A DNA stretch of 64,000 nucleotides from Thermoanaerobaculia bacterium (GCA_046331385.1 JAXLQW010000001.1:3719037-3783036), one strand, 5' to 3'; positions 15,522-40,628 are shown, numbered from the stretch's first letter. The notes: generated by a model not told the origin, from the letters alone. Program-made: numbers and translations.

Positions 15522-15636
15522 AGCCCTACGGAGGCCGATCGGGCTGGATCTCCCGCGCGTTCGACGATCGCGAACTCGGCGGCGACGACAGGTTCAACCT
15601 GAACGGCCGCCTCGACGCCGCATCGCGATCTGGGAA

Positions 15637-15800
15637 TGGTGGAGCAGATCCCTCTGAGTTCGAACACCCCGAAGGCTCGAGCACCCTGGTTTCGTGGGCG
15701 CGGGAAGTCGCGGCGCCGAGGCCGGCCGCATGACAACGGCAGCCCTACCGCTGGTTCCGTACGCTGTTTCCGCGGGCCCCTCTGCTCCGAAGGAAGCCAA
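15637..15800. repeat. Element A: ~160-nt sequence homologous to elements at 19795 and 27990; begins with tRNA-3'-end-like TGGTGGAGCAGA (reverse complement of ...TCTGCTCCACCA)
   Basis: Shares tggtgga.ca.atc.ctctgagttcgaa.ac.cc...ctggtttc.tgg...cgggaagtcgcggcg with the other two copies. Lies in a non-coding gap. Confidence 0.5.
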
Positions 15801-16010
15801 CCGAGAACGCAGCCGGTCCGCTCGTGTCCGGGGCGCGATTCGCGCGAAGGCGGACCCGAGGTCGACGTCGGAGCCATGCCGGCATCGGTTCCGACTCGGC
15901 GACCCCTCGGACTGGGGCAGCCTCCGTCAGGTTCTCGAAGCGAACGGCTCGCCGCCCGCCCTATCGGGGGCGCAGGTCCTTGCTGCGAAGGCAGAAGATC
16001 GTCCTCATCG

Positions 16011-16484
16011 TCAACCTGGGCCCGCCGGTCGCGAGTGCGGCCGGTCGCGGACCGCGCAGGTGCCGTCGCCGCAGCGCCCGGTGAGACGAGGTCGATTCTC
16101 GGCGAAAACACGGTAGGCGAGCTCGAGCAGCTGCGCGATGCCAGGCAGTCGAGTCAGCGCCACCAGGGGTCCGAAGCCGACTGCGGCGTAGAGGCGCCGA
16201 AACACCTCGACGCCTTCGACGAGCGTACCGTCAGGCAGGCGACCGTGGATGCGCTTCATCATCGCCTGCCATGTCTTGCCGACCGAGGACGCCTCGAAAC
16301 CCTCGGCGGCGATATCGGTGAAGCGGATGCGCTGGCGGCGGTCGCGACGCCAGAGCATTCGGACTTCGCGCATGCAGAGCGGGCATTCGCCGTCGTAGAA
16401 GACCTCGATGTCGATTTCGGTCGTCGCGCGGTTCGCGGCCTCCGGAGGCAGCCGCTGCTTCTCGTGCTCATTCGACGGGGACAC
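16011..16484 (-). CDS. DCC1-like thiol-disulfide oxidoreductase family protein (DUF393)
   Basis: Signature [15 protein letters not shown] and typical size (157 aa). Confidence 0.75.
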
Positions 16485-16663
16485 GGTTCACCTCCACGGC
16501 GGCGGCGGGCTGCCGCGCGCGAAACGGGTGGGGCACCGGCCGCAGCGCATCCCTTCTGAAGTCGAAGTTCCGATCGCGCCGGCGACGAACGAAGTGGAAG
16601 CCTATCAGCCGAAAAAGTCGATTTCAATGGCCAGAATCGTCTAAATCATGCTAGGATTGCCCC

Positions 16664-17476
16664 ATGCGGACGGCGAGGTTGCTGACCCCCCGCGAGGCAG
16701 CCGGAATGGCTGGCGTGGTGCCTTCCACCATCAAGCGCTGGGCGGAGAATGGGCTCCTTCCCTACATGCGCACCGCCGGCGGTCACCGGCGGTTCGAGCG
16801 CTTGGCCGTCGAGCGGTTTTTGGACGAGCAGGCGCGCCCGGAGGCTCACGACAGGTCACGAGGCGAATCGTGGATCCGGTGCCTGGTCGAAGGCCGGCGC
16901 CACGAGATCGACGGGCGGCTGCTCGAGGCCAGGGGTCGACTCGCGTCGTGGTGCCACGTCGCGGACGAGGTCGCCGCCGCCCTGGTCGCGATGGGCGCGC
17001 AGTGGGAGAGCGGTCGCCTGACCATCGCGGAAGAGCATGTTGCCTCCGACGCCCTGGCGCGAGCGCTCGCTCGCATGGGCGACGCGCTGCCGGTTCGCGT
17101 CGATGGCCCAAGGTCTCTGCTGGCCTGCGCGGGCGAGGACGAACACACACTGGGTCTGTCTCTCGCCGAGCTCTGCCTGCGCGAGCGCGGCTGGGCCGCG
17201 CTCTGGCTCGGTCGTCGCACGCCTCTTTCCGAGCTGGTGCGCCTGATCCGGAGCGGCGAAGTGGCGATGATCGGCCTGTCGGCGTCGCTGTTGCTCGGCG
17301 ACCGCCAGACGCTGCGACCGATCGCGGACGAGGTCGGAGCGGTCTGCGAGGAACGAGGCGTCGGCCTGGTGCTCGGCGGCGCGGGCGCGTGGCCGGATCG
17401 GCCTTCCTTCGGCGTTCGGGTGACCTCCTTCACCGCGTTCGGTGACTACCTCACCCTTGAAGAGGGCCGACCATGA
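16664..17476 (+). CDS. MerR-family regulator with cobalamin-binding domain (CarH/LitR-type B12-dependent photoreceptor-like)
   Basis: N-terminal MerR HTH (LLTPREAAGMAGVVPSTIKRWAENGLLPYMRTAGGHRRFERLAV). C-terminal B12-binding Rossmann-like region (ACAGEDEHTLGLSLAELCLRERGW...MIGLSASL...VLGGAGAW). Confidence 0.8.
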   Translation: MRTARLLTPREAAGMAGVVPSTIKRWAENGLLPYMRTAGGHRRFERLAVERFLDEQARPEAHDRSRGESWIRCLVEGRRHEIDGRLLEARGRLASWCHVADEVAAALVAMGAQWESGRLTIAEEHVASDALARALARMGDALPVRVDGPRSLLACAGEDEHTLGLSLAELCLRERGWAALWLGRRTPLSELVRLIRSGEVAMIGLSASLLLGDRQTLRPIADEVGAVCEERGVGLVLGGAGAWPDRPSFGVRVTSFTAFGDYLTLEEGRP

Positions 17477-18081
17477 GCGCCGCATGGCGATCGGCGATGC
17501 GAGTCGTCGGTTCGCTGTCGGGGCTCGCCCTGATCGTCGGTTGCGCCCCCAGTACGACCGAACGGCTGCGGCTGCCGCCGCTTACAACGGTCGCGCACGT
17601 CGAGCTCTCGCGCTATCTCGGTACCTGGTACGAGATCGCCAGCTTCCCGCAGAGCTTTCAACGCGGCTGCACCGCCACCACGGCGACCTACACGCAGCGC
17701 GGCGATGGCGGCATCGCCGTGCTCAATCGTTGCCGAATGGGCTCGCTCGACGGCGAGGAGAAGTCAGCGCTCGGCCGCGCCCGGGTGATCGAGCCTTCCA
17801 CGAACGCGAAGTTGGAGGTGAGCTTCTTCCGCCCCTTCTGGGGGGCGTACTGGATCATCGATCTCGCCGAGGACTACTCGTACGCGGTCGTCGGCCATCC
17901 GGGCCGCGACTACCTCTGGATCCTCGCGCGAGCGCCGCAGATGGGCGAAGCAACTTACAGGGGCATCGTCGCCCGCTTGCAGGCGCAGTGCTACGAGACC
18001 TCCCGCCTCGTTCGAACCCAGCAGCTCGCCGCGCCGGGCGCCGCCGCGAGCGCGCGCGAGCTCCCGAGCGGAGCTCGGTAG
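17473..18081 (+). CDS. blc: Bacterial lipocalin (Blc-like outer-membrane lipoprotein)
   Basis: Lipoprotein signal (LALIVGCAPS). Lipocalin SCR1 motif GTWYEIA. ATGA overlap with the upstream gene. Confidence 0.8.
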   Translation: MSAAWRSAMRVVGSLSGLALIVGCAPSTTERLRLPPLTTVAHVELSRYLGTWYEIASFPQSFQRGCTATTATYTQRGDGGIAVLNRCRMGSLDGEEKSALGRARVIEPSTNAKLEVSFFRPFWGAYWIIDLAEDYSYAVVGHPGRDYLWILARAPQMGEATYRGIVARLQAQCYETSRLVRTQQLAAPGAAASARELPSGAR

Positions 18082-18089
18082 GTCCCGCC

Positions 18090-18734
18090 ATGCTCGAGCG
18101 TGCGCTCCTTTGCCTGGCCGTTCTCCTGCCTGGCCGGTGGGACAGGCCCGAGAGTCTCCTCGCGGCGGGCTTCGCCGATGCGGTGGAGAAGCGCGGCACG
18201 CGACTCGACCTCGTTGCGGTCGACGCCCATCTCGGCTACTTCCGGGACCGATCGGTGGTCGAGCGTCTCCACCTCGATATCGTGGCGCCGGCCCGTGCCG
18301 CTGGGTATCGGACGATCTGGATCGTCGGGACCTCTCTCGGCGGAGTCGGCGGGCTTCTCTACCTCCGCGGTCGCCCGGAAGGGCTTTCCGGGGTTCTCGC
18401 GCTGGCTCCGTTTCTCGGGGGCGAAGATCTGATTCGAGAGATCGAAGCGGCCGGCGGGCCCACGCGCTGGACACTCCTTCCTGCATCGCCAGCCGACGAT
18501 GTCGGTCGCGGGCTCTGGAGATGGCTCGTGCCCTGGGCCAGGAGCCGGCAGGCGACGCCTCTGCACCTCGGCTGGGGGAGCGACGACTCCTTCGCGCAGG
18601 CGAACGAGATGCGGGCGTCTCTGCTTCCCCGAGAACGTATCTACTCTGAGCGTGGCGGTCACGACTGGGGCGCCTGGGCGCGGCTCTGGGAGCAGTTTCT
18701 GGATCGAACGCAGCTCTGCGGGGAGGAGACTTGA
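18090..18734 (+). CDS. Alpha/beta hydrolase (esterase-like)
   Basis: Nucleophile elbow GTSLGG (WIVGTSLGGVGGLLY). Internal ATG of track ORF 17442..18734. Confidence 0.65.
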   Translation: MLERALLCLAVLLPGRWDRPESLLAAGFADAVEKRGTRLDLVAVDAHLGYFRDRSVVERLHLDIVAPARAAGYRTIWIVGTSLGGVGGLLYLRGRPEGLSGVLALAPFLGGEDLIREIEAAGGPTRWTLLPASPADDVGRGLWRWLVPWARSRQATPLHLGWGSDDSFAQANEMRASLLPRERIYSERGGHDWGAWARLWEQFLDRTQLCGEET

Positions 18735-19621
18735 GACGATTCGATCTCGCGGCCACGGCGGCGGTTCTGCTGCTCGTCGGGGGATGCATGAGCTGGACTC
18801 CGGGATGGCGGTCACCATCGCCGGCGAGTAGCGCGCGTAACGTCGGGGGCGCCCAGGAGAATGCTCTCGAGCGTGCCGAAAGGCTCTTCGAGCCCGCGGA
18901 CAGCGCCAGCCGCTTGCGGGAAGCGATCGCCGCCTACGAAGAAGCGCTCGGCTCCGCGCCGGAGTCCGGCGAAGTTCTGGCTCGCCTGGCCGAGGCGCAT
19001 GTTCTCTACGGCGCCGCCTACTCCGACGCGCGGCGGGACAAGGCGCGCTCGTACATCACGGGCATTCGTTACGCCGAACAGGCGGCGGCGCTGAACCCGG
19101 AGTTCCGGCGCCGCGTCGAGGCGGGCGAGTCGTTCGGCGGCGCGAGCGCCGTGCTGGGGCGGGACGAGCTACGGCCGATGCTCTTGTGGGTGACGGGCGT
19201 CTCGTACTACTACAAAGAGTGCCTCAGTGGTGTCGGGCATCTGACGCAGTTCCGCTGGATGCTGCGCACGCGGGAGGTGATGGAGCGGATGATGGCGCTC
19301 GATCCCGCCTTCGAACACGGCGCCGTGCCGTTCTCGCTCGCGATCTACTTCATCGGTTTGCCGGCGGGCGCCGGCCGGGATCTGACCCGCTCGGCCGATC
19401 TCCTCGCCCAGGCCGTCGCCGAGTCGCCGACCTCGTTGCTCACCCGTTGGGGCCGCGCGAAGTACCTGCACGTCAAGACCGGGGATCGCGCCGCCTTTCG
19501 CCGCGATCTGGAGTGGGTGTTGGCGCAGGATCCCACCGCCGCGGACACTCCGTTGCGCTGGAATGTCTACTTTCAGCGCGACGCCCGCGAGCTTCTGGCC
19601 CAGATCGAGCGGTGGTTCTAG
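18731..19621 (+). CDS. TPR-like lipoprotein (TatT-like family, putative)
   Basis: Lipobox LLLVGGCMS. Helical TPR-like composition. ATGA overlap with the hydrolase gene. Confidence 0.5.
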   Translation: MRRFDLAATAAVLLLVGGCMSWTPGWRSPSPASSARNVGGAQENALERAERLFEPADSASRLREAIAAYEEALGSAPESGEVLARLAEAHVLYGAAYSDARRDKARSYITGIRYAEQAAALNPEFRRRVEAGESFGGASAVLGRDELRPMLLWVTGVSYYYKECLSGVGHLTQFRWMLRTREVMERMMALDPAFEHGAVPFSLAIYFIGLPAGAGRDLTRSADLLAQAVAESPTSLLTRWGRAKYLHVKTGDRAAFRRDLEWVLAQDPTAADTPLRWNVYFQRDARELLAQIERWF

Positions 19622-19794
19622 ACGAGCGCGCCGGACGGCAAGCCTCAGAACGAGTGCCGGCCGGATCGTAGCGGCCGCCGGAAGCGCGCCAGGCGGACGA
19701 GCTCCCGCGCCTGCGCCAGAGGAGCCGGCGATTCCCGGGCGTGCCCCGGAGTGGGCGCCCCTCGGCTCCGCGGTACGTCAGTGCGGCCTGAGAA

Positions 19795-19950
19795 ACCGGT
19801 ATGGTGGACCAAATCACTCTGAGTTCGAATACGCCAGGAGATTCGAACACACTGGTTTCCTGGCTTCGGGATGTCGCGGCGCTGAGGCGGTTCGCATGAG
19901 GGCCCTGCCTCCGGTTTCCTTACGCCGACCCAGCAGGCTGTCCGAAGCCT
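19795..19950. repeat. Element B: homolog of elements A and C (starts TGGTGGACCAAATCACTCTGAGTTCGAA)
   Basis: ~100 nt alignable to copies at 15637 and 27990. Lies between the TatT-like gene and AbiEii. Confidence 0.5.
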
Positions 19951-20761
19951 ACGGCCCCTTCCAGGCTTCGCCGGAGAGCCGCGGCGCGATCTCGTCGAGC
20001 ACGAAGCTCGCGGCTTGGCCCAGGTCCCATGCGACTCCACGCGCCAGCACCGGGCCGAGATCGGCTTGGAACACGCGATCCTGGAGCTTGCCATGCAGGT
20101 TGGCTTCGAACTCCGCGCGGGAGACGCGGAGCCCGTCCGCCTTCAGGTACTCTCTGAAGCAGGCGACCACGCGGTCGAAGTCGACCGCGGCGTGCGTCGC
20201 CGCCCACCAGAGATCGAAGAGATCCCTTCCCTTCCGGCGCTGGTAGAGCGCGCGGAGCTTGGTTCCGAGAAGCTCGTCAAGGGTGTAGCTCGAAATCGAC
20301 ACCGCTCCGGTGAACCACCGCGAGCGCACCTCGAACGGCCGGTTTTCGATCCCGAGAACGCAGAGGTGTTCGCGCGAGTTGATCTCGAGCTTCAGTCGGA
20401 GCGGTAGAGGCTCGGCATCTTCCGACGCGAATCGATAGACGAGCGTCACGCGGCCCTCGCCGAAGCTCCTCCTGGGTTCGCCCAGCCAGGGGTCGAGGCG
20501 CGACCGCAGCCGGTCGAGTGTGGCTCCGATCGGCTCGGCGCGTGTCTGCACGAGGTCGATGTCCTCGGAGTACCGGGGCGCCGGCGTCAGGTGCAGCTTG
20601 AAGAGCGCGGTCCCGCCGCGGAAGGCGAGGGACCGTGCGAGGTCCGCATCGCCGAAGGTCTCGACCAGGACCCGGCTCAGGACGAGATCCTGCTCGACCT
20701 GGGAGCTCGGCACCCACGGGACGTGCTGCCGCCACTCCGCGATGTAGTCCGCCGGAATCAC
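19949..20761 (-). CDS. abiEii: AbiEii/AbiGii nucleotidyltransferase toxin (DUF1814)
   Basis: 270 aa. DUF1814-like NTase motifs (FRGGTALFKLHL...RYSEDIDLV). 4-nt overlap with the upstream AbiEi gene. Confidence 0.85.
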   Translation of the reverse strand: MIPADYIAEWRQHVPWVPSSQVEQDLVLSRVLVETFGDADLARSLAFRGGTALFKLHLTPAPRYSEDIDLVQTRAEPIGATLDRLRSRLDPWLGEPRRSFGEGRVTLVYRFASEDAEPLPLRLKLEINSREHLCVLGIENRPFEVRSRWFTGAVSISSYTLDELLGTKLRALYQRRKGRDLFDLWWAATHAAVDFDRVVACFREYLKADGLRVSRAEFEANLHGKLQDRVFQADLGPVLARGVAWDLGQAASFVLDEIAPRLSGEAWKGP

Positions 20762-21561
20762 AGGTCGGGCTCCACGTCGGTGTTGATGCGGAGCTTCCAG
20801 CGCTCGTTCCGCGGCGCGTCGCCGCGCTCGCCTCCCGGGATCAACGAGGCGGTCTCGGTCGCACTCTGCGCGACGAACGCGGCCAGCGGCTCGCCACGCG
20901 ACGTCTGCCCGAGGCGCTCCAGGAGATAGCCGAGCCGCTGCGCCCAGGGGATCGGCGAGAGCGGGCCGAGCTCGGCGAGGCGTTTCGCATCGAGCTTTTC
21001 CGCCAGCTCGGCGAGGACGGTGGCGACGTTGTCGAGCCCGCCGCAGCGCTCGGGGTAGCCGACCAGGTCGAAGGCCGTCGCTTCCGGCGAGGAGACCCGG
21101 AGGTAGCCGCGCGGCGTGTTGACCTGCGCCGTCGGCATGGCTTCGGCGTTATGTCGCGCCACGAAATCGACCGCCACGCGGCCACAACGGATCGACGGCC
21201 GGTTCTTCGGCACGACGACCTGGAACTGCTGCGGCTGCTGATGCGCCGCTCCGTGGTAGCGGGCCGCGGTCAGGAGGCCCGCGTAGTGCGCGACCGAGAG
21301 CCGCTCCATCAACTGCGGGACGAACTGCTCGGGCGGCAGGCAACCGAGCGACTGGTACTCGGGCGGAACGAAGAGATGAATGCCTCGGTAGGGGGTGGCG
21401 ATCTCCCCCTTCGCCTTCAGCCGCCGGAGCGCGGCCCGCGCCGCGACGTCCGAGACGCCGAGATCTCGCACGACCTCCGCGGTCGAGAAGAGATACCGCC
21501 CCCGCGCGGCCCAATCCAGGACCAGCTTTCGGGCCGCGGGGCGGCTGGGTTCAGGATTCAC
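20758..21561 (-). CDS. abiEi: AbiEi antitoxin (type IV TA transcriptional regulator)
   Basis: 267 aa. N-terminal wHTH. Gene pairing and order AbiEi then AbiEii. Confidence 0.8.
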   Translation of the reverse strand: MNPEPSRPAARKLVLDWAARGRYLFSTAEVVRDLGVSDVAARAALRRLKAKGEIATPYRGIHLFVPPEYQSLGCLPPEQFVPQLMERLSVAHYAGLLTAARYHGAAHQQPQQFQVVVPKNRPSIRCGRVAVDFVARHNAEAMPTAQVNTPRGYLRVSSPEATAFDLVGYPERCGGLDNVATVLAELAEKLDAKRLAELGPLSPIPWAQRLGYLLERLGQTSRGEPLAAFVAQSATETASLIPGGERGDAPRNERWKLRINTDVEPDL

Positions 21562-21648
21562 GCGACCAAAATAACGCTAAACGTTACTTTTGTCGAGCAC
21601 ATTCTGCGGAGTGGGCCCCTTCCTAGGCGTAGCCCTGGAGTTGGAGCC

Positions 21649-22788
21649 CTACAACTCCCCGCGAAAGGCGCGGTCGAGCACGGCGGGGAGGAGGGCGTCG
21701 AGGGTGGCGGCGGACTCGGACTGGAGATCTTTCGCCGGTGTCAGCTCTGCCACGATCCGGACGGCTTCGAGTTGCAGGTCGAGGCTGGGCATTGGAAGGA
21801 CAATCGAGAGGAACTGCTCGGGTCGTGTGCGCTCCCGGCGTGCGCCGACACCTCGCGTTGCAGCGCCGAGTTTGCGCCAGAACCACTCCGTCCTCACTAG
21901 CGGCGCCAGATATCCAGGGTTTGCTTCTGCCTCGATGCAGCGGAAGGTTCGGTACTCCGGCGAAACAAACCAGCCGGCGAGAGCTGGCGAGCAGACCGCT
22001 ACCGCCCCCTCCCAGGCTTTCACCTGGCTCAAGACCAAAGAACCGTCATAGAGCCGATTGAAATGCTTGTAGGTCGTTCCGCCTCCCTCGACCGACGCTT
22101 TCGGGAACAAGCCGCCGCCGAAGCTCCTCACACCAACTTGAGGATACGAGGCTTGAGTGTCAACGCCGACCGATTCTTCGTCGAGACGCAACAAGTCGCC
22201 GAGCCGTCGGCGTCGTTCGCCCGAGAGCTTGTAGTGAAGACTCACGACAAGTGCTTCCTGTTCAAGCCTCGAGAGCGAGCGGAGGCGCCTTGCCTCAGCC
22301 ACCAACCCCGCCACCTCCTCGATTCGCGCCACCACCCGCCGCTGCTCCGGGAGGGGAGGTAGCGGAATTCTGTAGTCGAGCACCTCGGCGGGGCGAATCG
22401 CTGCGTAGTTCGTCGAACCTTGCGCTTCGACCTGGTCGCGGAAGGCTCGCGTGCGGGAGAAGTAGTCGAGAAACCGCCGATCCAACCTCCTCTCGTCTAC
22501 CTCGAAGAGGAAGTAGTGGCTGCTCACGATCGCGCCCTCGAGCTCCGGCGGCACGAGGCCAAAGCCACCGACTTTCGCGTCGATCTCCGCTACCAAGAAC
22601 TCACCGGCTCGGCAGACCTGCTGCTTCTTCGTTTTGATCATCGCGCCCGGCACGCGGTCTCGAACGACGATGCCTTGGGCGTGGAGCTGTACTCGGGGCC
22701 GCGTGTATTCCTTCAGGTCATCGATTTGAATGAAGTCCCGGCGCAGCTTTAGGACCTCACCGAGGCTGCTAACGGGCCAGCCGGTCAT
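21649..22788 (-). CDS. hsdS: Type I restriction-modification specificity subunit HsdS (two TRDs)
   Basis: 379 aa with duplicated TRD architecture and conserved central/distal repeats (LPPLPEQRRVVARIEEV...). Overlaps the hsdM stop. Confidence 0.85.
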   Translation of the reverse strand: MTGWPVSSLGEVLKLRRDFIQIDDLKEYTRPRVQLHAQGIVVRDRVPGAMIKTKKQQVCRAGEFLVAEIDAKVGGFGLVPPELEGAIVSSHYFLFEVDERRLDRRFLDYFSRTRAFRDQVEAQGSTNYAAIRPAEVLDYRIPLPPLPEQRRVVARIEEVAGLVAEARRLRSLSRLEQEALVVSLHYKLSGERRRRLGDLLRLDEESVGVDTQASYPQVGVRSFGGGLFPKASVEGGGTTYKHFNRLYDGSLVLSQVKAWEGAVAVCSPALAGWFVSPEYRTFRCIEAEANPGYLAPLVRTEWFWRKLGAATRGVGARRERTRPEQFLSIVLPMPSLDLQLEAVRIVAELTPAKDLQSESAATLDALLPAVLDRAFRGEL

Positions 22789-24341
22789 CGGATCGGAGCC
22801 GCGAGCAGTCCCTGGATCCTCTCCACGATCTCGACGATCCTCCGCTCCTTCTCCAAGACGCTCGCCACTAGCACTTCAGGCGGCAGGTGGGTGATGTCCT
22901 CTTTCGCGCGCGGATTCTTGCGGTCGAGGTTGCAGCCGTTCGCCAGGAGCTCGGTGGCTGGCACCTTCCAAGTGCGCTCGTTCTCTTCGCGGTGCGTCCA
23001 CCACGCGAGGCAGGGCTCGAACTCGTCGTACTGGAGCGGCTGCGTCTTCGTGTAGTTCTTGCGCCCCTCGGGGAGGGGGTGCTCGTAGTACCAGACGTCC
23101 TGCGTCGGGCCGGAGCGGTCGAAGAAGAGGAGGTTGGTGGGGATCGACGTGTACGGGGCGAAGACGCCGTTCGGGAGGCGCACGATGGTGTGGAGGTTGA
23201 ACTCTTCCAGCAACTCCTTCTTGATCCGCGCGCAGACGCCGTCGCCGAAGAGCGTGCCGTTGGGCACGACGACCGCGGCACGCGCCGGCGGGAAGCCCGC
23301 GCGCGGCTGCTTGCGCAGCTTGCGCATGATGAGCTGCAGGAAGAGCAGCGCCGTCTCCGCCGTCTGGCGGTCCTCCGGGAAATTCGACTGGATGCCCTTC
23401 TCCTCCTCGCCGCCGAAGGGCGGATTGGTGAGGATGACGTCGACGCGGTCCTTCTCGCCGATCTCGGTGAGCTTGAACCTCAGGGCGTTGCCGGGGTCGA
23501 TCTGCGGCGCGTCCAGCCCGTGGAGGAGGAGGTTCATTTGGCAGAGCAGGTACGGCAGCGGCTTCGGCTCGCAGCCGAAGAGGGACTTCTCCTGCAGCAC
23601 CTTGCGGCCATCCGTCGTGCGCACTTGCGCGAAGAGGTGGTTGTATGACTCGACGAGGAAGCCACCGGTGCCGCTCGCCGGGTCGAGGACGCGCTCGCCG
23701 AGACGGGGATCGGTGACCGCGACCATGAAGCGCACCACGGGTCGCGGCGTATAGAACTCGCCCCCGTCGCCCGCCGCGTCGCGCATCTCGCGCAGCATCG
23801 ACTCGTAGAGCGCGCCCAGCGTGTGCAACTCCGCGCTCGACGTGAAGTGGATCGTCGCCAGCTTGTTGATCACGTCGCGCAGCAGGTAGCCGCTCACCAT
23901 GCGGTTCTGCACGCCCTTGAACACCGTGGCGATGACGTCGCGCCGGTCGTCGCCGTTGGCGCTCGACAGGTTCCGGAGGTAGGCGAACAAGCCGGGGGCG
24001 CGCTTCCCGTCGGCGCGCTTGTACTCGTCCTGGTTGATGAACGCGATCAGGTCGTCGCCGGTGATCCCCTTGGGGTCGGCCGCCCAGTCCCGCCAGCGGT
24101 AGGGCGCCTCGATCGCCGGTCGGAACCTGCTGCCGGCGAGCTCGGCCTCGGTCTCGCGCTGGGCCTCGAGGTCGTCGAGGAACTTGAGGAAGAGGACCCA
24201 GGTGAGCAGCGGCAGGCGGTCGACGTCGCCCGAGAGCCCTTTGTCCTTGCGCATGATGTCGCGCGCCGACTTGATGGTGCTGGCGAGCGATTGGACGGTG
24301 GTGAGCGGAGCGCCGGCTTTCTTGGGAGTTCTAGGCGGCAT
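22785..24341 (-). CDS. hsdM: Type I R-M DNA methyltransferase subunit HsdM (N6-adenine)
   Basis: NPPF catalytic motif (ILTNPPFGG). SAM motif (VLDPASGTGGFL). HsdM N-domain. Confidence 0.9.
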   Translation of the reverse strand: MPPRTPKKAGAPLTTVQSLASTIKSARDIMRKDKGLSGDVDRLPLLTWVLFLKFLDDLEAQRETEAELAGSRFRPAIEAPYRWRDWAADPKGITGDDLIAFINQDEYKRADGKRAPGLFAYLRNLSSANGDDRRDVIATVFKGVQNRMVSGYLLRDVINKLATIHFTSSAELHTLGALYESMLREMRDAAGDGGEFYTPRPVVRFMVAVTDPRLGERVLDPASGTGGFLVESYNHLFAQVRTTDGRKVLQEKSLFGCEPKPLPYLLCQMNLLLHGLDAPQIDPGNALRFKLTEIGEKDRVDVILTNPPFGGEEEKGIQSNFPEDRQTAETALLFLQLIMRKLRKQPRAGFPPARAAVVVPNGTLFGDGVCARIKKELLEEFNLHTIVRLPNGVFAPYTSIPTNLLFFDRSGPTQDVWYYEHPLPEGRKNYTKTQPLQYDEFEPCLAWWTHREENERTWKVPATELLANGCNLDRKNPRAKEDITHLPPEVLVASVLEKERRIVEIVERIQGLLAAPIR

Positions 24342-26694
24342 AGAGGAGGTTCTGGAGCTCGGTCACGGCGGCGCGCAGGAGGTCGGCGCCGCCGAAGAGG
24401 TTGGTGATCTCCTGCACCGTGCCGTGCTGCGACACCGGCGGGACCTTGAGGACGTCGGGCATGAGGAACTGCGCGGCGCCGTGCTCGGCGTACCTTTCCA
24501 GGAGCTCGTCGAGGACCGCGCGCGCCTCGGGGCCGTACCTGGCGAAGAAGTCTCTGCGCTCGGTGCGCAGCCGCTGGGCCCGTTCCCGCCGCGTGCGCAG
24601 CGGCGCGTTCCAGGCCAGATGACAGAGCAAATCGAACGGGTCGGCGTCGGGTTGGCGCGCGGTCTCGGCGAGGGCTTCGAAGCTCACACCCATCGCCTCG
24701 AGGCGCGAGAGGATTTCGGCGCGCTTCTCCGGGTCCGCCCAGCGAGCACGCAGCTCCGGGGCCGACGGAACCAGCGTGCGCACCTTCTCGGCCGCGTACT
24801 CGGTGTAGCGCACCACGCGGAGCTGCCTGCCGTCGGGGTCGAGCTCGTAGACGAGGTGCGCCGCGATCTCCACGCTGCCCTCGTCGAAGTAGTACTTCCT
24901 TCGCGGCGCGTGCTCCGGATCGAGAATGACGCCGTCCTCGCCGGGGTAGGGCGGCGGCATCTCGGCCTCCTCCTCGGCCACCTCGTGCGGATCGGGACCG
25001 GGGACCGCGGCGAGCTCCTCCTCGGTGACGCGCGCCGGGTCGCCGTCGAAGTCCGGATCGGCGAACAGGCGGGTGGCGGAGCCGGTGTAGTCGAGGATGT
25101 TGAACCACAGCTTCCCGTAGTCGTCGCGCACCCGCGTGCCGCGCCCGATGATCTGCTTGAACTCGCTCATCGAGCCGACGACGCGCGCCAGAACGACGTT
25201 GCGGCAGGTCGGTGCGTCGACCCCGGTCGTCAAGAGCTGGGAAGTGGTGAGGATGACCGGCGTCCTGGATTCGACGTCTTGGAAGCGATCGAGATGCCCG
25301 CGGCCGACGTCCCCTTCGTCGGCCGTGACCCGGCAGACGTAGTCGGCATGCTTCCGGACCAGATCGGCGTTGAGGTTGCCGAGCGCCCGGCGCATCTCGT
25401 CGGCGTGCTCCTGGTCGACACAGAAGACGATGGTCTTGGCGAAGCGGTCATCCCGCCGCAGGAACGCCGTCAGGTGGCGGGCGATCGCCTCGGTCCGCGC
25501 GCGGAGCGCCACCAGCCGCTCGAAGTCCTTGGTCTGGTATTCGTCGTCGGGGATCTCGCGGCCGTAGCGGTCGAGCTCGTCCTTGCTGGGGCGCCACCCC
25601 GCGGCGTCCCATTCGGTGATCACCCGGTGAACGCGATAGGGCGCCAGGAAGCCGTCCTCGATGCCCTGTCGCAGGCTGTATTGGTAGATCGGGTTGCCGA
25701 AGTAGAGGTAGGTGTCGCGGCTCTCCTCGCGCAGCGGTGTGGCGGTCAATCCGAGCTGGTAGGCCGGATGGAAGTAGGTGAGGATCTCGCGCCAGCTGGA
25801 GTCGTCGCGAGCGCTGCCCCGATGGCATTCGTCGACGATGACGAGGTCGAAGAAGTCGCGAGCGTACTCGCGATAGAGGCCGGGCCGGCTCTCGTCCTCG
25901 GCCAGCGCCTGGTAGATCGCGAAGTACATCTCGCGGCCCTGATTCGCGACGCCGCCCTCGATCTTGAAGCGCGCGTCGCCGAACGGGGCGAAGATCCCGT
26001 CCTTGGGCTGGTCGACGAGGATGTTGCGATCGGCGAGGTAGAGGATGCGCGGCCTGCGATGGTCGCCGGTGGCGTTCCAGCCGGCGTTCCAGAGCTTCCA
26101 GCAGATTTGAAAAGCGACGGCCGTCTTCCCCGTTCCGGTCGCCATCGTGAGGAGCTGGCGCCGGCGGCCGCCGAGGATCCCCTCGACGGCCCGGTTGACC
26201 GCGATCTCCTGGTAGTACCGCTCGCCCTTGCCGACCGCGTGATTCATCGGCGTCAGCAGACGGGACGCCGCTTCGTCGGAGACGAGTCCGCGGCCGGCGC
26301 GATACCGGTTCCAAAGAGCTGCTGGCGTCGGAAAGTCGGAGACCGTCAGCTCCTGGCCGGTGAAGCGGTCGAACTCTAGGATCTCGTGACCGTTCGTCGC
26401 ATACGCGAAGTGCAGGCCGAGCATCTCCGCGTACTCTCTGGCCTGCTGCATGCCCGCGCCCGGCGTCTGCCACTCGCTCTTCGCCTCGACTACGGCCAGC
26501 GGAAAGTTGCGTTCGTAGCGGAGGATGTAGTCCACGCGCTTCGGCGCCTTGCGCACGAACGACTTTCCCGCCGGGACGATGCGCCCGTCGGTGATCGAAC
26601 GCTGCTCGGCGATCGAGTGCGGATCCTCGTCCCAACCCGCAGCGAGGAGTCGAGGCACGACCAACTTCCGGCACGTATCCGCTTCATTGAGCAT
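24331..26694 (-). CDS. hsdR: Type I restriction endonuclease subunit HsdR
   Basis: N-terminal PD-(D/E)xK nuclease region. SF2 helicase motifs: Walker A TMATGTGKT, DEAH-box DECHRG, LTATP. Confidence 0.9.
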   Translation of the reverse strand: MLNEADTCRKLVVPRLLAAGWDEDPHSIAEQRSITDGRIVPAGKSFVRKAPKRVDYILRYERNFPLAVVEAKSEWQTPGAGMQQAREYAEMLGLHFAYATNGHEILEFDRFTGQELTVSDFPTPAALWNRYRAGRGLVSDEAASRLLTPMNHAVGKGERYYQEIAVNRAVEGILGGRRRQLLTMATGTGKTAVAFQICWKLWNAGWNATGDHRRPRILYLADRNILVDQPKDGIFAPFGDARFKIEGGVANQGREMYFAIYQALAEDESRPGLYREYARDFFDLVIVDECHRGSARDDSSWREILTYFHPAYQLGLTATPLREESRDTYLYFGNPIYQYSLRQGIEDGFLAPYRVHRVITEWDAAGWRPSKDELDRYGREIPDDEYQTKDFERLVALRARTEAIARHLTAFLRRDDRFAKTIVFCVDQEHADEMRRALGNLNADLVRKHADYVCRVTADEGDVGRGHLDRFQDVESRTPVILTTSQLLTTGVDAPTCRNVVLARVVGSMSEFKQIIGRGTRVRDDYGKLWFNILDYTGSATRLFADPDFDGDPARVTEEELAAVPGPDPHEVAEEEAEMPPPYPGEDGVILDPEHAPRRKYYFDEGSVEIAAHLVYELDPDGRQLRVVRYTEYAAEKVRTLVPSAPELRARWADPEKRAEILSRLEAMGVSFEALAETARQPDADPFDLLCHLAWNAPLRTRRERAQRLRTERRDFFARYGPEARAVLDELLERYAEHGAAQFLMPDVLKVPPVSQHGTVQEITNLFGGADLLRAAVTELQNLLYAA

Positions 26695-26734
26695 GAGGCT
26701 CAGCGGATTCTAGCCCTCGCGTTCGAAGGGAGAC

Positions 26735-26852
26735 ATGGTGGAGCAGAAGGGATTCGCGCCGGGCGGTTGGGTGGGGGGCCCGAATCCCCGATGCGAGATA
26801 TTGCAGGAACTGAATGGTGGAGCAGAAGGGATTCGAACCCTCGACCCCCACG
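26735..26852. repeat. Two tRNA-3'-end-derived fragments (minus-strand orientation); the second (26827-26852) is a near-perfect T-arm plus acceptor 3' strand plus CCA
   Basis: Reverse complement of 26827-26863 is ...GAGGG-TTCGAAT-CCCTT-CTGCTCC-A-CCA, a canonical T stem-loop with G53-C61. No complementary 5' acceptor strand downstream, so a fragment not a gene. Confidence 0.6.
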
Positions 26853-26876
26853 TTGCGGGCGCCGGAGCGATCGCGA

Positions 26877-27332
26877 CTACTTGCGATCGCGCACTTCGCG
26901 CAGGACGCGCGCGTCGTCCTGGTGGCGCGGGTCGTCGATCCCACTCTTGATCGCGATCAAGCTGTCGATGTCGATCCAGTTGGCGTGCGCCGCTCCATAG
27001 CGCGACTCGATCCTGCGCCCCCAGGCGTCCGTGAAGCTGATCTCGCTCGATCCCCCGGCTTCCCGGAGCAGATCGACGCGGTTGGGCTCGACGCCGAGCT
27101 GCAGGATCTCGCCGGGCTTCTCGGCGTCCAGGAGATAGGGGCTGCCGAAGTCAGCCAACGCGCGGTTGGCGCGCTCGACATTCCCGCGCTCGGGGTCGAG
27201 CCAGAGATCGATGTCCCTGGTGTAGCGAGGCCTGGCGTGGAAGATGAACGCCAAACCGCCGATGATCAGATAGCGGACGCCGTGGCGGGCAAAGAGCTCG
27301 AGGATGTCCTCGAAATCGCGAACGGCGTCCAA
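26877..27332 (-). CDS. Putative nucleotidyltransferase-fold protein (possible toxin-like component)
   Basis: 151 aa. HGVRYLIIGGLAFIFHARPRYTRDIDLWLDP resembles minimal NTase-fold proteins. Confidence 0.5.
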   Translation of the reverse strand: MDAVRDFEDILELFARHGVRYLIIGGLAFIFHARPRYTRDIDLWLDPERGNVERANRALADFGSPYLLDAEKPGEILQLGVEPNRVDLLREAGGSSEISFTDAWGRRIESRYGAAHANWIDIDSLIAIKSGIDDPRHQDDARVLREVRDRK

Positions 27333-27336
27333 ATCA

Positions 27337-27555
27337 TCAACTCTCTACGGGATGCGCGGTCGCGCGGGCGGCCTCGACGAGCTCCACGTCGCGCCGGAGG
27401 GCGACGAGCACCGAGAGCCGCTCCTCGGGCGTCCGTCGCTGCCAGAACTCGAGATCCCAGGCCTCGGCCTCGGCGAAGCTCGCGGCGCGATTCGCGACCA
27501 GGCGCTCGCGGCGCTCGCGGCTGCGCTCCTGGAGCGTCGTCTCGGAGTCCGACAT
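27337..27555 (-). CDS. Small 72-aa protein (possible antitoxin-like partner)
   Basis: Genuine C-terminal part of track ORF 27337..28191. Start MSDSETTLQERSRERRERL; the rest of that ORF is tandem-repeat translation. Confidence 0.4.
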   Translation of the reverse strand: MSDSETTLQERSRERRERLVANRAASFAEAEAWDLEFWQRRTPEERLSVLVALRRDVELVEAARATAHPVES

Positions 27556-27666
27556 GACCGTGATTCTACCGCTCATCGAACATGTCAACGCGGCGCTTGC
27601 GGCCGGCGGCCAAGCGCCCGACGATCCGCGTTCCGGGGATCGATCCGTAGAGACGCAGGAGGACCT

Positions 27667-28070
27667 GGTGGAGCAGAAGGGATTCGTGCCGGGCGGCCGG
27701 GTGGGGGGCCCGAATCCCTGACCTTCTGGTCGACCGAAGGGAGACATGGTGGAGCCGAAGGGATTCGCGCCGGGCGGCCGGGTGGGGGGCCCGAATCCCT
27801 GAATTTCTGGTCGACCGAAGGGAGACATGGTGGAGCCGAAGGGATTCGCGCCGGGCGGTCGGGTGGGGGGCCCGAATCCCTGAATTTCTGGTCGACCGGA
27901 GGGAGACATGGTGGAGCCGAAGGGATTCGCGCCGGGCGGTCGGGTGGGGGGCCCGAATCCCTGAATTTCTGGTCGACCGGAGGGAGACATGGTGGACCAA
28001 ATCACTCTGAGTTCGAACACCCCAGGAAGTTCGAACACCCTGATTTTCTGGCTTCGGGAGGTCGCGGCAA
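27667..28070. repeat. Tandem array of an 81-nt repeat (4 near-identical units plus a 5th divergent unit merging into element C)
   Basis: Units start at 27667, 27747, 27828, 27909, 27990. Unit is TGGTGGAGCCGAAGGGATTCGCGCCGGGCGG.CGGGTGGGGGGCCCGAATCCCTGAATTTCTGGTCGACCG.AGGGAGACA. Each begins with a degenerate tRNA-3'-end-like sequence. Confidence 0.85.
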
Positions 28071-28200
28071 TGAGGCAGGCGGCATGAGCTCCATGCCGAT
28101 GAAAGGCCTGTCTCTGGGTTCCGTACGCCGTCTCCGGAGGAGCCCGGCAGGGCGCCTCGGGACCGGCGTCCCTCTCTGGTATCCGCTGCAAGGCAGCGGA
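27990..28200. repeat. Element C: homolog of elements A and B, immediately upstream of repA-like gene
   Basis: TGGTGGACCAAATCACTCTGAGTTCGAACACC...CTGATTTTCTGGCTTCGGGAGGTCGCGGCAATGAGGC aligns with the copies at 15637 and 19795. Confidence 0.5.
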
Positions 28201-28213
28201 GCGGAGGGGCAGT

Positions 28214-29170
28214 ATGGCTTGGAAGTCCGCGACCCCGCAGCTTTCGTTGGTCCTCCCTGGCGCCCCGGCGTCACAGTTTCATTCTACAGATGTTGAGATC
28301 GGATCCCGCAAGTCCAGGCGCTCGGGCAGCCTGATCCGGCAGGCGCTCTACCTCGACCAGGAAGACGCCTACGCCGCCGGCGAGGTCGGTTTCCTGGCCC
28401 GGGCGCTCGTGCAGGCGACCCTCCCGCACAGCGACCCGAAGGCCAACGAGTTCGTCCGGCGGAACGGACACTTCACCCTGTCCATCCTTGCCCCGAAGGA
28501 CGTCGGGCTACCCTATGGCCGGTATCCGCGTCTGGTGCTCGCCTACCTCACGACCGAGGCGGTGCGCCGCAAGAACCCCGACATCGAGCTCGGCGGCCAC
28601 TTCTCGCACTTCTGCGCCGCCCTCGGGATCCCGCCGACCACGGGACCGCGTGGGTCCTTGCCGCAGCTCCGCGACCAGCTCCAGCGCCTCTTCGCCTCGA
28701 CCTTCCAGTGCATCTTCCACGACGAGAGCCAGGGGAGACACGCTGGCGATGGCTTCCTGATCGCCGAGAAGCGGGAGCTTTGGTGGGACCCGCGGCCGAG
28801 GAAGGGCGAGGCTGCGTGGGGGTCCCACGTCGTTCTCTCGGACCGGTTCTACCGGGAGGCGACCGAAGCGCCGGTCCCGCTCGACCTGAGGGTCCTTCGC
28901 GCCCTCCGGTCGCCGTTCGAGATCGACATCTATGTCTGGCTGACCTGGCGCTTCTTCCGCCTGCGGAAGCCGGTCACCATCCCGTGGGCTTCGCTGGCGC
29001 TCCAGTTCGGGTGCGGCTACGCCAACCCCCGACACTTCAAGAAGCGGTTCCTCGGCTACCTCCGGAGCGTCATCGACTACTACCCGGACGTGAGGCTCGA
29101 GAGCTCGGCCGCCGGCTTGCTGCTCAAGCCCTCGCCAACGCATATCGAGCAGCGGCCTGCGAAGCGTTGA
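28214..29170 (+). CDS. repA: Replication initiator protein RepA-like (RPA family, PF10134-like) of integrative/conjugative elements
   Basis: 318 aa. Resembles ICE/plasmid RepA proteins (LPYGRYPRLVLAYLTTEAVRRKNPDIELGGHFSHFCAALGIPPTTGPRGSLPQLRDQLQRLF). First gene after the repeat array. Confidence 0.7.
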   Translation: MAWKSATPQLSLVLPGAPASQFHSTDVEIGSRKSRRSGSLIRQALYLDQEDAYAAGEVGFLARALVQATLPHSDPKANEFVRRNGHFTLSILAPKDVGLPYGRYPRLVLAYLTTEAVRRKNPDIELGGHFSHFCAALGIPPTTGPRGSLPQLRDQLQRLFASTFQCIFHDESQGRHAGDGFLIAEKRELWWDPRPRKGEAAWGSHVVLSDRFYREATEAPVPLDLRVLRALRSPFEIDIYVWLTWRFFRLRKPVTIPWASLALQFGCGYANPRHFKKRFLGYLRSVIDYYPDVRLESSAAGLLLKPSPTHIEQRPAKR

Positions 29171-29223: not shown

Positions 29224-29823
29224 ATGGGCGCCGTAGCTCCGAAGGCACCGAACCAGCCGGACTGGGATGGCCTCTTCGCCGTCGCGCAGGCCCAGAGCGG
29301 CTACTTCACGACGGCTCAAGCCGCCCAGTCGGGCTATTCGCGTCCGCTCCTTCACAAGTACCTGGCGACGGGGAAGGTGGTGCGCGTGCGACGTGGCGTC
29401 TACCGCGTCGTGCACTTCCCGGCCAGCGAGCACGAGGACCTCATCGTCCTCTGGCTCTGGGCCGAGCAAGCCGGCGTGTTCTCCCATGAGACGGCCCTGG
29501 CGCTCCACGATCTCTCCGACGCGCTTCCCGGAAAGGTACACCTGACGGTGCCCCCGGGTTGGCGCCGGCGCCGTCTCCGAGTCCCAGCCGGGCTCGTGCT
29601 GCACTTCGCCGACGTCGGTGACGTCGACCGCGCCAGCTATTCAGCGGTGCCCGTCACGGCACCGCTCCGGACCCTGCGAGACTGCATCGAGGCCAACGTC
29701 GCCGCCGACCTTGTCCGCCAAGGGATCCTCCAGGCGCGGCGGCGCGGGATCGTTTCCGCGAAGGATGAAGCTCGACTTCTTTCCGAGCTTGGCAGCCTGG
29801 GCCGGACGGTAGCTGCGCGATGA
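29224..29823 (+). CDS. abiEi: AbiEi-family antitoxin (second copy)
   Basis: 199 aa. AbiEi_4-like N-terminal domain. 4-nt overlap with the downstream AbiEii. Confidence 0.7.
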   Translation: MGAVAPKAPNQPDWDGLFAVAQAQSGYFTTAQAAQSGYSRPLLHKYLATGKVVRVRRGVYRVVHFPASEHEDLIVLWLWAEQAGVFSHETALALHDLSDALPGKVHLTVPPGWRRRRLRVPAGLVLHFADVGDVDRASYSAVPVTAPLRTLRDCIEANVAADLVRQGILQARRRGIVSAKDEARLLSELGSLGRTVAAR

Positions 29824-30725
29824 CCGCTCGCCAGTACGCAACGCCTCTGGCCTTCAAGCAGGCGCTCGAACAACGGCTCAAGTCCTCGTCGGCCACCGGC
29901 GTCGACTTCGGACGGCGCCGCCAGTTGCTCGTCTTCGATCGCTTCCTCGCTCGCCTGGCCCAGGTCGCTGGCGACGCCGTCACTCTCAAGGGTGGGCTCG
30001 TTCTCGAACTTCGCCTCGCCCGGGCACGGACCACCAAGGACATCGACCTTCGCATGATGGGGTCGTCAGACGACGTGCTCGAGCGGCTCCAGGAAGCAGG
30101 CCGCCTCGACCTCGGCGACCACATGCTCTTCGAGGTCCAGCCGGATGCGGACCACCCCGAGATCCAGAACGAGGGGATGCGCTACGACGGATTCCGCTAT
30201 CGCACCGAGTGCCGGCTCGCGGGCATGATCTACAGCCGACCGTTCGGCGTCGACGTAGCCTTCGGTGACCCGCTCGTCGGCGAGCCCGACATCGTCACTG
30301 GCGACGACATCCTCGGATTCGCCGGGATCGCTCCTCCGTCGCTGCGCCTGTATCCGGTTGTCTCCCACATCGCCGAGAAGCTTCACGCGTTCACGATGCC
30401 CCGGCCGAGGCCGAACTCGCGGGTTCGAGATCTCCCCGACCTGGCACTGCTGGCGACCACCGGCACGATCGACGGGGCTGAGCTCCGTCGGGCCATCGAG
30501 AAGACATTCGAGTTTCGCGGCACGCATCCGATTCCGCCCGCGGTCCCGCAGCCTCCCGAGTTCTGGGAGGCGCCGTACACAACCATGGCCGAGAACGACG
30601 ACCTAGCCTGGAGGGCACTACCGGAAGTTACGGCAGCGGTGGAGACGTTCCTCAATCCCGTGCTGGCTTCCTCCGACTCTGGGACCTGGGAGCCGAAAAG
30701 CTGGCTCTGGAAGGGCCGTGCCTAA
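29820..30725 (+). CDS. abiEii: AbiEii/DUF1814 nucleotidyltransferase toxin (second copy)
   Basis: 301 aa. DUF1814 motifs (TLKGGLVLELRL...TKDIDLRM). Confidence 0.8.
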   Translation: MTARQYATPLAFKQALEQRLKSSSATGVDFGRRRQLLVFDRFLARLAQVAGDAVTLKGGLVLELRLARARTTKDIDLRMMGSSDDVLERLQEAGRLDLGDHMLFEVQPDADHPEIQNEGMRYDGFRYRTECRLAGMIYSRPFGVDVAFGDPLVGEPDIVTGDDILGFAGIAPPSLRLYPVVSHIAEKLHAFTMPRPRPNSRVRDLPDLALLATTGTIDGAELRRAIEKTFEFRGTHPIPPAVPQPPEFWEAPYTTMAENDDLAWRALPEVTAAVETFLNPVLASSDSGTWEPKSWLWKGRA

Positions 30726-32256: not shown

Positions 32257-32372
32257 CGCGAGGCGCGCGGCAGGGCGGGGTGCCCGAGGAGAGGGGTTCG
32301 CTCTCGGATCGACGAACGCAGTGCAGGTGCTCGTCGTCAAGGTCGCCACCGGACCCGCGGCCGACTCGAGGC

Positions 32373-35798: not shown

Positions 35799-35812
35799 AG
35801 GTTGTATCTCCG

Positions 35813-37111: not shown

Positions 37112-37114
37112 CGC

Positions 37115-37759: not shown

Positions 37760-37819
37760 GGAGCGGAATTATACACAAATGCGCCGGGATTGGCCGATGG
37801 TCGGTCGCAGCAGGCCCGG

Positions 37820-37990
37820 CACCGATGAAACTGTGACGGCCGAGGCCCGCTGGTTGGTTCAAGAACCCTGCGGATCTCGCGGCCTTTTCCAGATGAAACG
37901 GTGACGCCCCCACCGAGGAAACTGTGACGCCAGGCGCCCTGCCACCGATGAATCGGTGACGCCGGACCGATGATTCGGTGACGCGACCTG
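37820..37990. promoter_or_regulatory. Five direct repeats of ~17 nt (GATGAAACTGTGACGSC-like) in the lexA-ardC divergent intergenic region
   Basis: Copies begin near 37824, 37892, 37917, 37947, 37969. One further copy at ~30729 (AGATGAAACTGTGACGGGC). Not palindromic. Confidence 0.5.
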
Positions 37991-40598: not shown

Positions 40599-40628
40599 CC
40601 GGCGGGACGCTGCCAACCGGAGTCCGGC

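Follow-up and report, generated by a model that had tools for sequence, protein, structure and literature searches.

The window analysed here is a stretch of 64,000 nt from a metagenome-assembled genome (MAG) of the Thermoanaerobaculia (Acidobacteriota), and it contains three repeats, named E1, E2 and E3, which begin like the 3' end of a tRNA. The repeats are genuine, each being a copy of the end module of a mobile-element family with insertion sites at tRNA-Ala, and E3 is a complete module that forms the left end of an integrative and conjugative element (ICE). E is probably the module at the tRNA-distal end of integrative elements with RepA_C, a family of Thermoanaerobaculia that would insert at the extreme 3' end of tRNA-Ala(CGC) and would comprise conjugative elements as well as small cassettes without an integrase. 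The original prediction was that three homologous elements delimit tandem decayed islands at one tRNA hotspot. It was largely right in this tandem-accretion architecture, and E is more than an attachment-site (att) arm, as it consists of an att core, a conserved mini-gene and a repA leader.

The end module and its small reading frame

The three copies start at 15636 (E1), 19801 (E2) and 27989 (E3), all on the plus strand, and each opens with ATGGTGGA. A 29-nt degenerate pattern, with up to three mismatches allowed, matches only these three sites in the window, where 100 dinucleotide shuffles give an expectation of 0, and a hidden Markov model (HMM) built from the first 100 nt of E finds the same three copies in the window and no others. 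In the MAFFT alignment of E1, E2 and E3 the similarity covers ~100 nt up to GCATGA and has a sharp 5' boundary at ATGGTGGA; a second shared block, GGTTCCGTACGCC, lies 20-45 nt past GCATGA and brings the alignable total to ~140-150 nt. The claim of three homologous elements whose similarity goes beyond a short att core is borne out by these alignments. The TGGTGGA at the start of E is the reverse complement of TCCACCA, and 11 nt (TGGTGGAGCAG) are common to E1 and the reverse complement of the tRNA-Ala(CGC) 3' end of related loci. A canonical T-arm plus acceptor at the E start was considered and rejected, the match to the tRNA being limited to its last 8-11 nt. The modules and the gene that follows E3 are:

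15636..15775, plus strand: E1, a decayed end module with core ATGGTGGA, in which the GGTTCCGTACGC block is kept, the H3 hairpin is short and no repA lies downstream
19801..19935, plus strand: E2 end module, with an intact 33-codon open reading frame (ORF) at 19801-19899 (MVDQITLSSNTPGDSNTLVSWLRDVAALRRFA, then stop) and a short hairpin
27989..28087, plus strand: E3 small ORF (MVDQITLSSNTPGSSNTLIFWLREVAAMRQAA, then stop), with its start codon inside the core AATGGTGGA and two TCGAAC(ACC) repeats
28088..28213, plus strand: structured untranslated leader of 126 nt with three hairpins, between the small ORF and repA
28214..29170, plus strand: repA (Pfam RepA_C PF04796, E = 2e-32), first gene of the conjugative element

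The conserved ~100 nt of E corresponds to the 33-codon ORF, which runs from ATG to the TGA of GCATGA and is intact in E3 and E2. In E1 it is frameshifted by a 1-nt deletion that puts the conserved TGA (15731-15733) out of frame, and E2 has no repA; the gene directly after it is a convergent AbiEii, which meets E2 with its 3' end. Of 26 close copies, 22 have the small ORF intact; it is also intact, with an ATG, TTG or GTG start, upstream of RepA genes that are 77-90% identical, and six divergent lineages keep its length and TGA; divergent examples are (L)VDLTHPSSNTLGDSNTLWSWLREVAELRQAA in L035 and VVAHTVASSNPVWDSNRIYAWLHEVAALRQAA in L040, each followed by the stop. Length and stop are conserved, indels begin immediately past the stop, and the small ORF of L019 has an in-frame deletion of 18 nt. 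The Nei-Gojobori ratio of nonsynonymous to synonymous differences per site (pN/pS) of codons 18-32 is 0.40 in frame, compared with 2.32 and 1.07 in the other frames. The small ORF is under purifying selection, and the signal comes from its C-terminal half.

Searches of Pfam and NCBIfam with the small-ORF peptide match no family. A profile search of 1.84 billion representative proteins gives 38 hits at E ≤ 1e-3, one of them an in-frame fusion to RepA. In most hits the motif closes an ORF at its very C-terminus, behind an N-terminal extension that is variable and unrelated; these extensions are run-ons of the gene caller across the junction. A predicted protein from this search, P0151 (154 aa), has the small ORF (…SSNTPRDSNTLCEWLREVAAIRQAA) continued in frame by the N-terminal region of RepA (…GEVGFLARALV…), and the 126-nt leader is missing between them.

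In most copies repA starts 227 nt past the start of E, and AbiEi/AbiEii genes often follow it. Within the leader, CCCTCTCT (28170-28177) pairs with the repA Shine-Dalgarno (SD) sequence GGAGGGG (28204-28210); this helix is predicted in all 25 sequences, and an inner hairpin has compensatory changes. The 228-nt region has a minimum-free-energy z-score of -3.7 on the plus strand and -2.3 on the reverse strand. RNAalifold, applied to the 25 distinct sequences, yields 50 pairs, 16 of them with compensatory changes, compared with 4.3±1.6 such pairs in shuffles (0 of 500 reach 16) and 2-11 in slid controls. By these folding models, the anti-SD structure is predicted to occlude the ribosome-binding site of repA.

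The tRNA-Ala(CGC) target and the two proposed arms

Relatives of E were sought with a pattern of 24 specified bases in one genome per species, and further metagenome loci were reached through RepA. The pattern scan gives 24 loci, all but one of them in MAGs of Thermoanaerobaculia/Acidobacteriota and often with multiple copies per genome; when the RepA-derived metagenome loci are included, the HMM counts 51 E copies in 41 loci, nearly all from such MAGs. It is common among these relatives for 2-4 co-oriented copies to form an array, with spacings of 0.5-8 kb (L013, L015, L016, L032, L040, L108 with four copies and L109 with three), so the three-copy arrangement of the window is typical of the family.

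The tRNA-Ala(CGC) gene is found by ARAGORN in L005, in L020/L030/L031 (a single element from three samples) and in L100, which count as three independent sets of loci. In all of them it lies on the opposite strand, 1.6 to >5 kb to the right of E, with its 3' end toward E. The reverse complement of this tRNA opens with TGGTGGAGC(A/G)GAAGGGA and E opens with (A)ATGGTGGA(C/G)C; the core that they share is of 8-9 nt, AATGGTGGA, and is the reverse complement of the tRNA 3' end. These three sets thus combine a direct repeat at the distal junction with an intact tRNA at the proximal junction, while the window has distal E copies and tRNA fragments only, and no intact tRNA. Island length and cargo between E and tRNA-Ala vary among loci. 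The start of E (TGGTAGCC) and the tRNA-like fragment that precedes it (TGGTAGCGCG) vary in concert in a sister clade.

U, a conserved sequence of ~110 nt, adjoins the tRNA immediately on its left, and in it TTCGAACACC, GTTGAAGC, GCGTAAGTGCTT and CAGAGTGATTTGAGAA follow one another up to the boundary with TGGTGGAGC. U also adjoins E, with AATGGTGGAC at the start of E, in L001, L007, L009, L013 (twice), L015, L016, L021, L024 and others, which makes at least nine junctions. The three types of junction (flank to E, U to tRNA and U to E) are those expected if elements integrate site-specifically at the very 3' end of a tRNA, with a shared core of roughly AATGGTGGA and with U and E as the two putative attachment-site arms of the element. 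TTCGAACACC occurs twice in E and once in U, and a 12-bp inverted repeat, CAGAGTGATTTG/CAAATCACTCTG, surrounds the core at several U-E junctions and is degenerate at others; as a sequence pattern, these correspond to repeated arm-type sites in both arms together with inverted core-type sites. The U arm is not found in the window, nor in L108 or L109.

Some copies have upstream a frame of the type '...RTPxxCPLF...', which was considered as the C-terminus of an integrase split by integration. This candidate was rejected: its 'RTP' is what TTCGAACACC encodes in a different frame, the fragment itself is an arm sequence of variant form, and other copies have in-frame stops in U. In L015 ARAGORN reports a 'tRNA-Trp' of 95 nt (L015 5156-5250) just past an E2-type copy. 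This call is probably a false positive; the homologous DNA of the window, at the AbiEii 3' end, gives no tRNA call.

The arrays of L108 (4229-20956) and L109 (4172-12346) have three RepA_C genes within 8.5 kb, each with E ahead of it and each paired with a different AbiE or toxin-antitoxin (TA) type module plus a UPF0149/SEC-C gene; neither an integrase nor a tRNA lies within 21 kb of them. At distant RepA loci (43-53% identity) no E or small ORF is detectable. In L098 (9033-10376), which is from an organism of lower G+C, a RepA that is 44% identical lies 330 nt downstream of a same-strand tRNA-Ala(CGC), with no E-like sequence; judged from this locus, distant RepA_C elements may share the tRNA-Ala target in the opposite orientation.

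Segments between the copies, tRNA-Ala scars and the element body

The gene contents listed by the original prediction are correct: DCC1-like, CarH-like, lipocalin, TatT-like, AbiEi/AbiEii and type I restriction-modification (R-M) genes, then RepA and a type IV secretion system (T4SS). The genes of the two segments between the E copies are:

16011-16484, minus strand: DCC1-like gene, convergent, which follows E1
16664-17476: CarH-like MerR/B12 regulator
17473-18081: lipocalin
18090..19621, plus strand: hydrolase-like (214 aa) and TatT-like genes
19949-20761 and 20758-21561, minus strand: AbiEii and AbiEi, E2-led cargo
21649-22788, 22785-24341 and 24331-26694, minus strand: HsdS, HsdM and HsdR of the type I R-M system, E2-led cargo (whole cargo 19949..26694)

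E2 lies 180 nt past the TatT-like gene. L015 keeps the junction of E2 with AbiEii over 407 nt, and in L034 this AbiE pair comes after RepA. The 19.8-26.7 kb segment therefore looks like a relic or a satellite module that belongs to the family, and the proposal of an inserted segment at 19.8-28 kb stands in this form. The segment from 15.6 to 19.8 kb, which had been taken for another island, is not shown to be one. Its E1 is frameshifted, and 18111-19626, with the hydrolase and TatT-like genes, is 84-87% identical to DNA that lies left of the same hotspot in two other genomes, L005 and L024. This homology stops exactly after the TatT stop and inside the 5' end of the hydrolase gene. The hydrolase-TatT block is either old flank or a separately mobile two-gene unit, and the DCC1-like, CarH-like and lipocalin genes are in none of the related loci examined. 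E1 may still have a cassette origin, because in L108 an E copy is followed by metabolic genes, as E1 is.

The 5' end of the hydrolase gene (signal-peptide region, 18090-18130) differs from L024 186-313 and from L005, and the homology begins ~20 nt inside the window gene, which places a recombination breakpoint there, where this gene is joined to the lipocalin gene.

Left of E1, G+C falls from ~72% to ~68% near 12 kb. A 735-aa protein without a Pfam domain (13314-15521), which is identical to U0X73_15695 on a 4.52-Mb Thermoanaerobaculia MAG contig, has a homologue of 75% identity in Pseudoduganella umbonata (Betaproteobacteria) and homologues of 72-77% in many metagenomes, and these similarities suggest cross-phylum transfer. 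The fall in G+C and the betaproteobacterial homologue mean that the acquired region may start before E1.

Other fragments of tRNA-Ala lie between the E2-led cargo and E3:

26725-26812, plus strand: extra diverged unit of the 81-bp type, with a tRNA fragment at 26736-26756, 0.9 kb upstream of the array
26815-26857, plus strand: 43-nt perfect copy of the tRNA-Ala(CGC) 3' half, which reaches the anticodon
26877..27557, minus strand: nucleotidyltransferase-like gene (151 aa, 26877-27332, with weak DUF6036/AbiEii-like hits) and a small upstream ORF
27662..27996, plus strand: 81-bp tandem repeat of 4.1 copies with 97% identity, the last unit of which adjoins the E3 core

Each 81-bp unit opens with a 21-22-nt fragment of the tRNA-Ala 3' end (TGGTGGAGCNGAAGGGATTCG, at 27666, 27747, 27828 and 27909), has an 8-bp inverted repeat (GGGATTCG...CGAATCCC) and ends in a strong SD-like GGAGGGAGAC right before the next ATGGTGGA. 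These units look like decayed tRNA-Ala 3' halves, and a single unit of this type lies ahead of E in L005, L013, L014 and L108. The unit was also compared with the first 81 nt of E as a possible paralogue, and this was rejected, the similarity beyond the core being not significant (score 41 against 25±6.5, maximum 47). The unit and E open with an identical 8-9 nt, and unequal exchange between their cores would delete the unit, giving U-E junctions, or multiply it, giving the array of four copies. The nucleotidyltransferase-like gene pair sits between the array and the 43-nt fragment. The sequence of this fragment implies a second class of integrase, which would cross over in the anticodon loop of tRNA-Ala(CGC), and the units at 26725-26857 are scars of other insertions at tRNA-Ala. 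With these further fragments at 26.7-28.0 kb, the site is an insertion hotspot that was hit multiple times. The successive insertions at a tRNA hotspot that had been proposed hold in this respect, with a target, tRNA-Ala(CGC), that lies outside the window; the 15.6-19.8 kb island is the part that is not shown.

The ICE that was proposed to follow the third element is there, with E3 as its true left end. Its genes after repA are:

29224..30725, plus strand: AbiEi/AbiEii pair, which L004 has in the same order
30757..64000, plus strand: ICE body, which runs past the window end
within 30757-37759: ankyrin-repeat protein, ICE defence cargo
32884-34680, 34680-35798 and 35813-37111, plus strand: ThiF/E1-like gene, SMODS nucleotidyltransferase and SAVED effector, a set like those of cyclic-oligonucleotide-based antiphage signalling systems (CBASS)
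37115-37759, plus strand: LexA-like gene (LexA/S24-type repressor), which adjoins the CBASS-like set
38323 and 39299, plus strand: ArdC and SSB
40832-43249, 43246 and 43770-45863, plus strand: relaxase, TraF and TraG/VirD4
45929 and 47441-50023, plus strand: TrbB and TrbE of the T4SS
within the ICE body, plus strand: major facilitator superfamily (MFS) transporter and OEP/CusB efflux genes

Up to 64000, neither an integrase nor a tRNA is seen in the ICE body.

Interpretation and relation to known systems

The preferred model gives E four parts, which are the recombination core AATGGTGGA shared with the tRNA end, the 33-codon ORF with its start codon in the core and two TCGAAC(ACC) repeats (one such repeat is also in U), the 126-nt leader, the last of whose three hairpins would sequester the repA ribosome-binding site, and repA. 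A tyrosine integrase, not seen in the sequences examined, would exchange strands within AATGGTGG, with the TTCGAACACC repeats of both arms as arm-type sites for proteins. Translation of the small ORF would act in cis as a leader peptide that opens the anti-SD structure, upon which RepA would be made and the excised circle would replicate; this leader-peptide role is the preferred interpretation of the ORF. The right end of the ICE, past 64000, would read integrase, U and then AATGGTGGAGC of tRNA-Ala(CGC). E3 would be the functional left end of the ICE, and E2 (intact ORF, no repA, AbiE and R-M cargo) and E1 (frameshifted) would be leftovers at the hotspot from earlier related insertions or rearrangements.

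Several observations weigh against this model. The small ORF stops at 28085-28087 and the repA ATG is at 28214, so a gap of 126 nt separates them, with no overlap of the kind seen in classical leader peptides and no adjacency, and scans for sigma-70-type promoters detect none. Over the whole ORF the contrast in pN/pS is weak (0.72 in frame, 1.38 and 0.78 off-frame), and its N-terminal half has no clear coding signal; this half is probably constrained as DNA, because both TCGAAC motifs are invariant even at synonymous positions. No integrase domain is found in the scanned ORFs of the window or of related loci, the right end of the ICE being past the window and absence from the element as a whole being unproven; none is found in the small E-RepA-U modules or the long RepA contigs either. 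No empty tRNA-Ala(CGC) site was recovered, which would read flank-AAATGGTGGAGC... and might or might not include U; U could therefore be native flank of the tRNA. A search through homologues of the 735-aa left-flank protein led to a closest relative in an unrelated, non-syntenic context and to the family members in Pseudoduganella. Since neither an integrase nor an empty site turned up, the recombinase type and the exact crossover point are putative assignments. At four loci, E3 among them, a tRNA fragment and 60-80 nt lie between the flank and E, which means that the true crossover of those elements may be at the fragment and not at the start of E. The hydrolase-TatT block, in turn, argues against a simple island between E1 and E2.

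It is unlikely that E is a protein-binding att arm only, for an integrase, an excisionase or a host factor, with an accidental ORF in GC-rich conserved DNA. The invariance of TCGAAC as DNA in both repeats, even in divergent copies and without any synonymous change, would fit such an arm, as would the presence of TTCGAACACC in the opposite arm U, the 12-bp inverted repeat around the core at some U-E junctions and the N-terminal half without coding signal. The C-terminal 15 codons, however, have mostly synonymous or conservative changes (pN/pS 0.40 against 2.3 and 1.1 off-frame), the ORF keeps its TGA and its length of 33 codons with indels only from just past the stop, the deletion in L019 is in frame and one homologue is fused to RepA. 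The earlier suggestion that the repeats are arm regions of related integrases therefore keeps its att core of related integrative elements and loses the idea of a mere arm, as E also has the 33-codon ORF and the structured repA leader. That E is a small non-coding RNA gene, or an RNA derived from a tRNA or tmRNA, that serves as the integration target is highly improbable. Its start resembles a tRNA 3' end, and the leader folds better than shuffles and covaries, but ARAGORN finds 0 tRNA or tmRNA genes in the window, Rfam has 0 matches there that pass the gathering threshold and, even with E ≤ 10, none of relevance in 15400-28500, and the recurrent target is an intact tRNA-Ala(CGC). E is always on the element side of the junctions, where it is followed by repA, and the covarying hairpins are downstream of the ORF, as the 5' leader of repA and not as a free-standing gene. 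The proposal of a structured RNA gene co-opted for integration falls with these results, as E travels with the element and matches no RNA family.

A different account takes E and U as boundaries of integron-like cassettes, with integrase-less modules (RepA-AbiE, AbiE-R-M and metabolic) stacked by a trans-acting recombinase rather than left by decay of autonomous islands. It is quite improbable, although arrays of 2-4 co-oriented E copies with 0.5-8 kb spacing are in at least eight contigs, L108 packs four E copies and three RepA-plus-AbiE/TA modules into 14 kb, small E-RepA-cargo-U units have no integrase, the E2-AbiEii junction recurs in L015 and an E copy of L108, like E1, precedes metabolic genes. 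Against these stand the lack of a dedicated recombinase beside any array, the replication and addiction genes, which fit decayed or satellite plasmid-like elements such as cis-mobilizable elements (CIMEs) (PMC5704250), the missing U of the window and of L108/L109, and the lack of an attC-like imperfect palindrome delimiting the units. Measured against integron cassettes, the arrays have no integrase near them and their units begin with an ORF-bearing E instead of an attC-type palindrome. A further possibility follows from the position of the start codon inside the recombination core, because the sequence just upstream of the small ORF (ribosome-binding site, promoter) is exchanged at each integration, excision or accretion. 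The partner upstream of E would be U in the circle, the chromosome after insertion, or an 81-bp unit, and the unit upstream of E3 supplies a strong GGAGGG SD sequence. It is doubtful, at the same low level as the cassette account, that a recombination-state switch licenses leader translation and RepA only in certain junction states, and/or that a trans-acting integrase stacks integrase-less RepA-AbiE cassettes into integron-like defence arrays at tRNA-Ala.

For the preferred model of a terminal module with a repA leader, the S004-repA arrangement of Salmonella genomic island 1 (SGI1) is the closest documented parallel. The RepA_C-type RepA of SGI1 depends on a leader ORF, S004, being translated in cis and on an intact stem-loop where repA starts (PMC7826253). 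The two are alike as integrative elements with an initiator of the RepA_C family near one end, a short upstream ORF of the same orientation and an RNA stem-loop over the repA translation start, and RepA is thought to drive plasmid-like replication of the excised circle. They differ in that S004 and repA overlap, by four codons, and experiments showed S004 to be required, whereas the ORF of E starts in the att core and ends 126 nt upstream with three hairpins between, and its role is predicted from sequence. Direct coupling by overlap is inapplicable to the E module because the ORF stops 126 nt before repA. Plasmid RepA genes under leader-peptide and antisense control include those of R1 (tap/CopA) and ColIb-P9 (repY/Inc RNA). 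In these, too, the initiator gene is preceded by a small ORF and by RNA structure that makes the rep ribosome-binding site inaccessible; they differ from E in having other initiator families, close translational coupling and a defined antisense RNA.

It is well known that decayed ICEs, integrative and mobilizable elements (IMEs) and CIMEs accrete in tandem at tRNA att sites, as in the ICESt1/ICESt3 model (PMC5704250) and the ssrA islands of Dehalococcoides (PMC3146451). The window is alike in that co-oriented att-type repeats, which start with a tRNA 3' end, bound defence and accessory segments, in that the newest conjugative element, which is intact, is the one closest to the tRNA, and in that older parts lack genes for integration and transfer. 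It differs in the tRNA identity of E, which is only 8-9 nt, in a second, interleaved class of scar with 21-43 nt identity, in the presence of left-type ends (E) without right arms (U), and in the unsupported 15.6-19.8 kb island. ICEs of the Tn4371 family, from betaproteobacterial hosts, have int(Tn4371), repA-parA-parB, a Trb/Tra module and an 8-bp TTTTTCAT target (PMC2789088). The ICE of the window shares with them a RepA-type gene, a module of relaxase, TraF, TraG and Trb (mating-pair formation type T, MPF-T) and variable cargo that includes ubiquitin-activating-like (ThiF) genes; in contrast, no ParA/ParB or integrase is found and its target is the tRNA-Ala 3' end and not TTTTTCAT, so it falls outside this family by target site, par genes and integrase.

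As genome scars the tandem copies of E are of a familiar kind, here in a bacterial group that has been little studied, and they do not represent a new kind of system. Together with the related loci they define, for an uncultured acidobacterial class, an insertion site (the 3' end of tRNA-Ala(CGC)), the arms E and U and a putative replication-control module. The family is widespread, both conjugative and satellite, and carries AbiE, type I R-M and CBASS defence genes, and its relic arrays can now be recognised in MAGs. The conserved and unannotated 33-residue protein joins the short list of candidate RepA leader peptides, and the module offers a concrete test case in which the replication of an integrative element may be tied to its recombination state.

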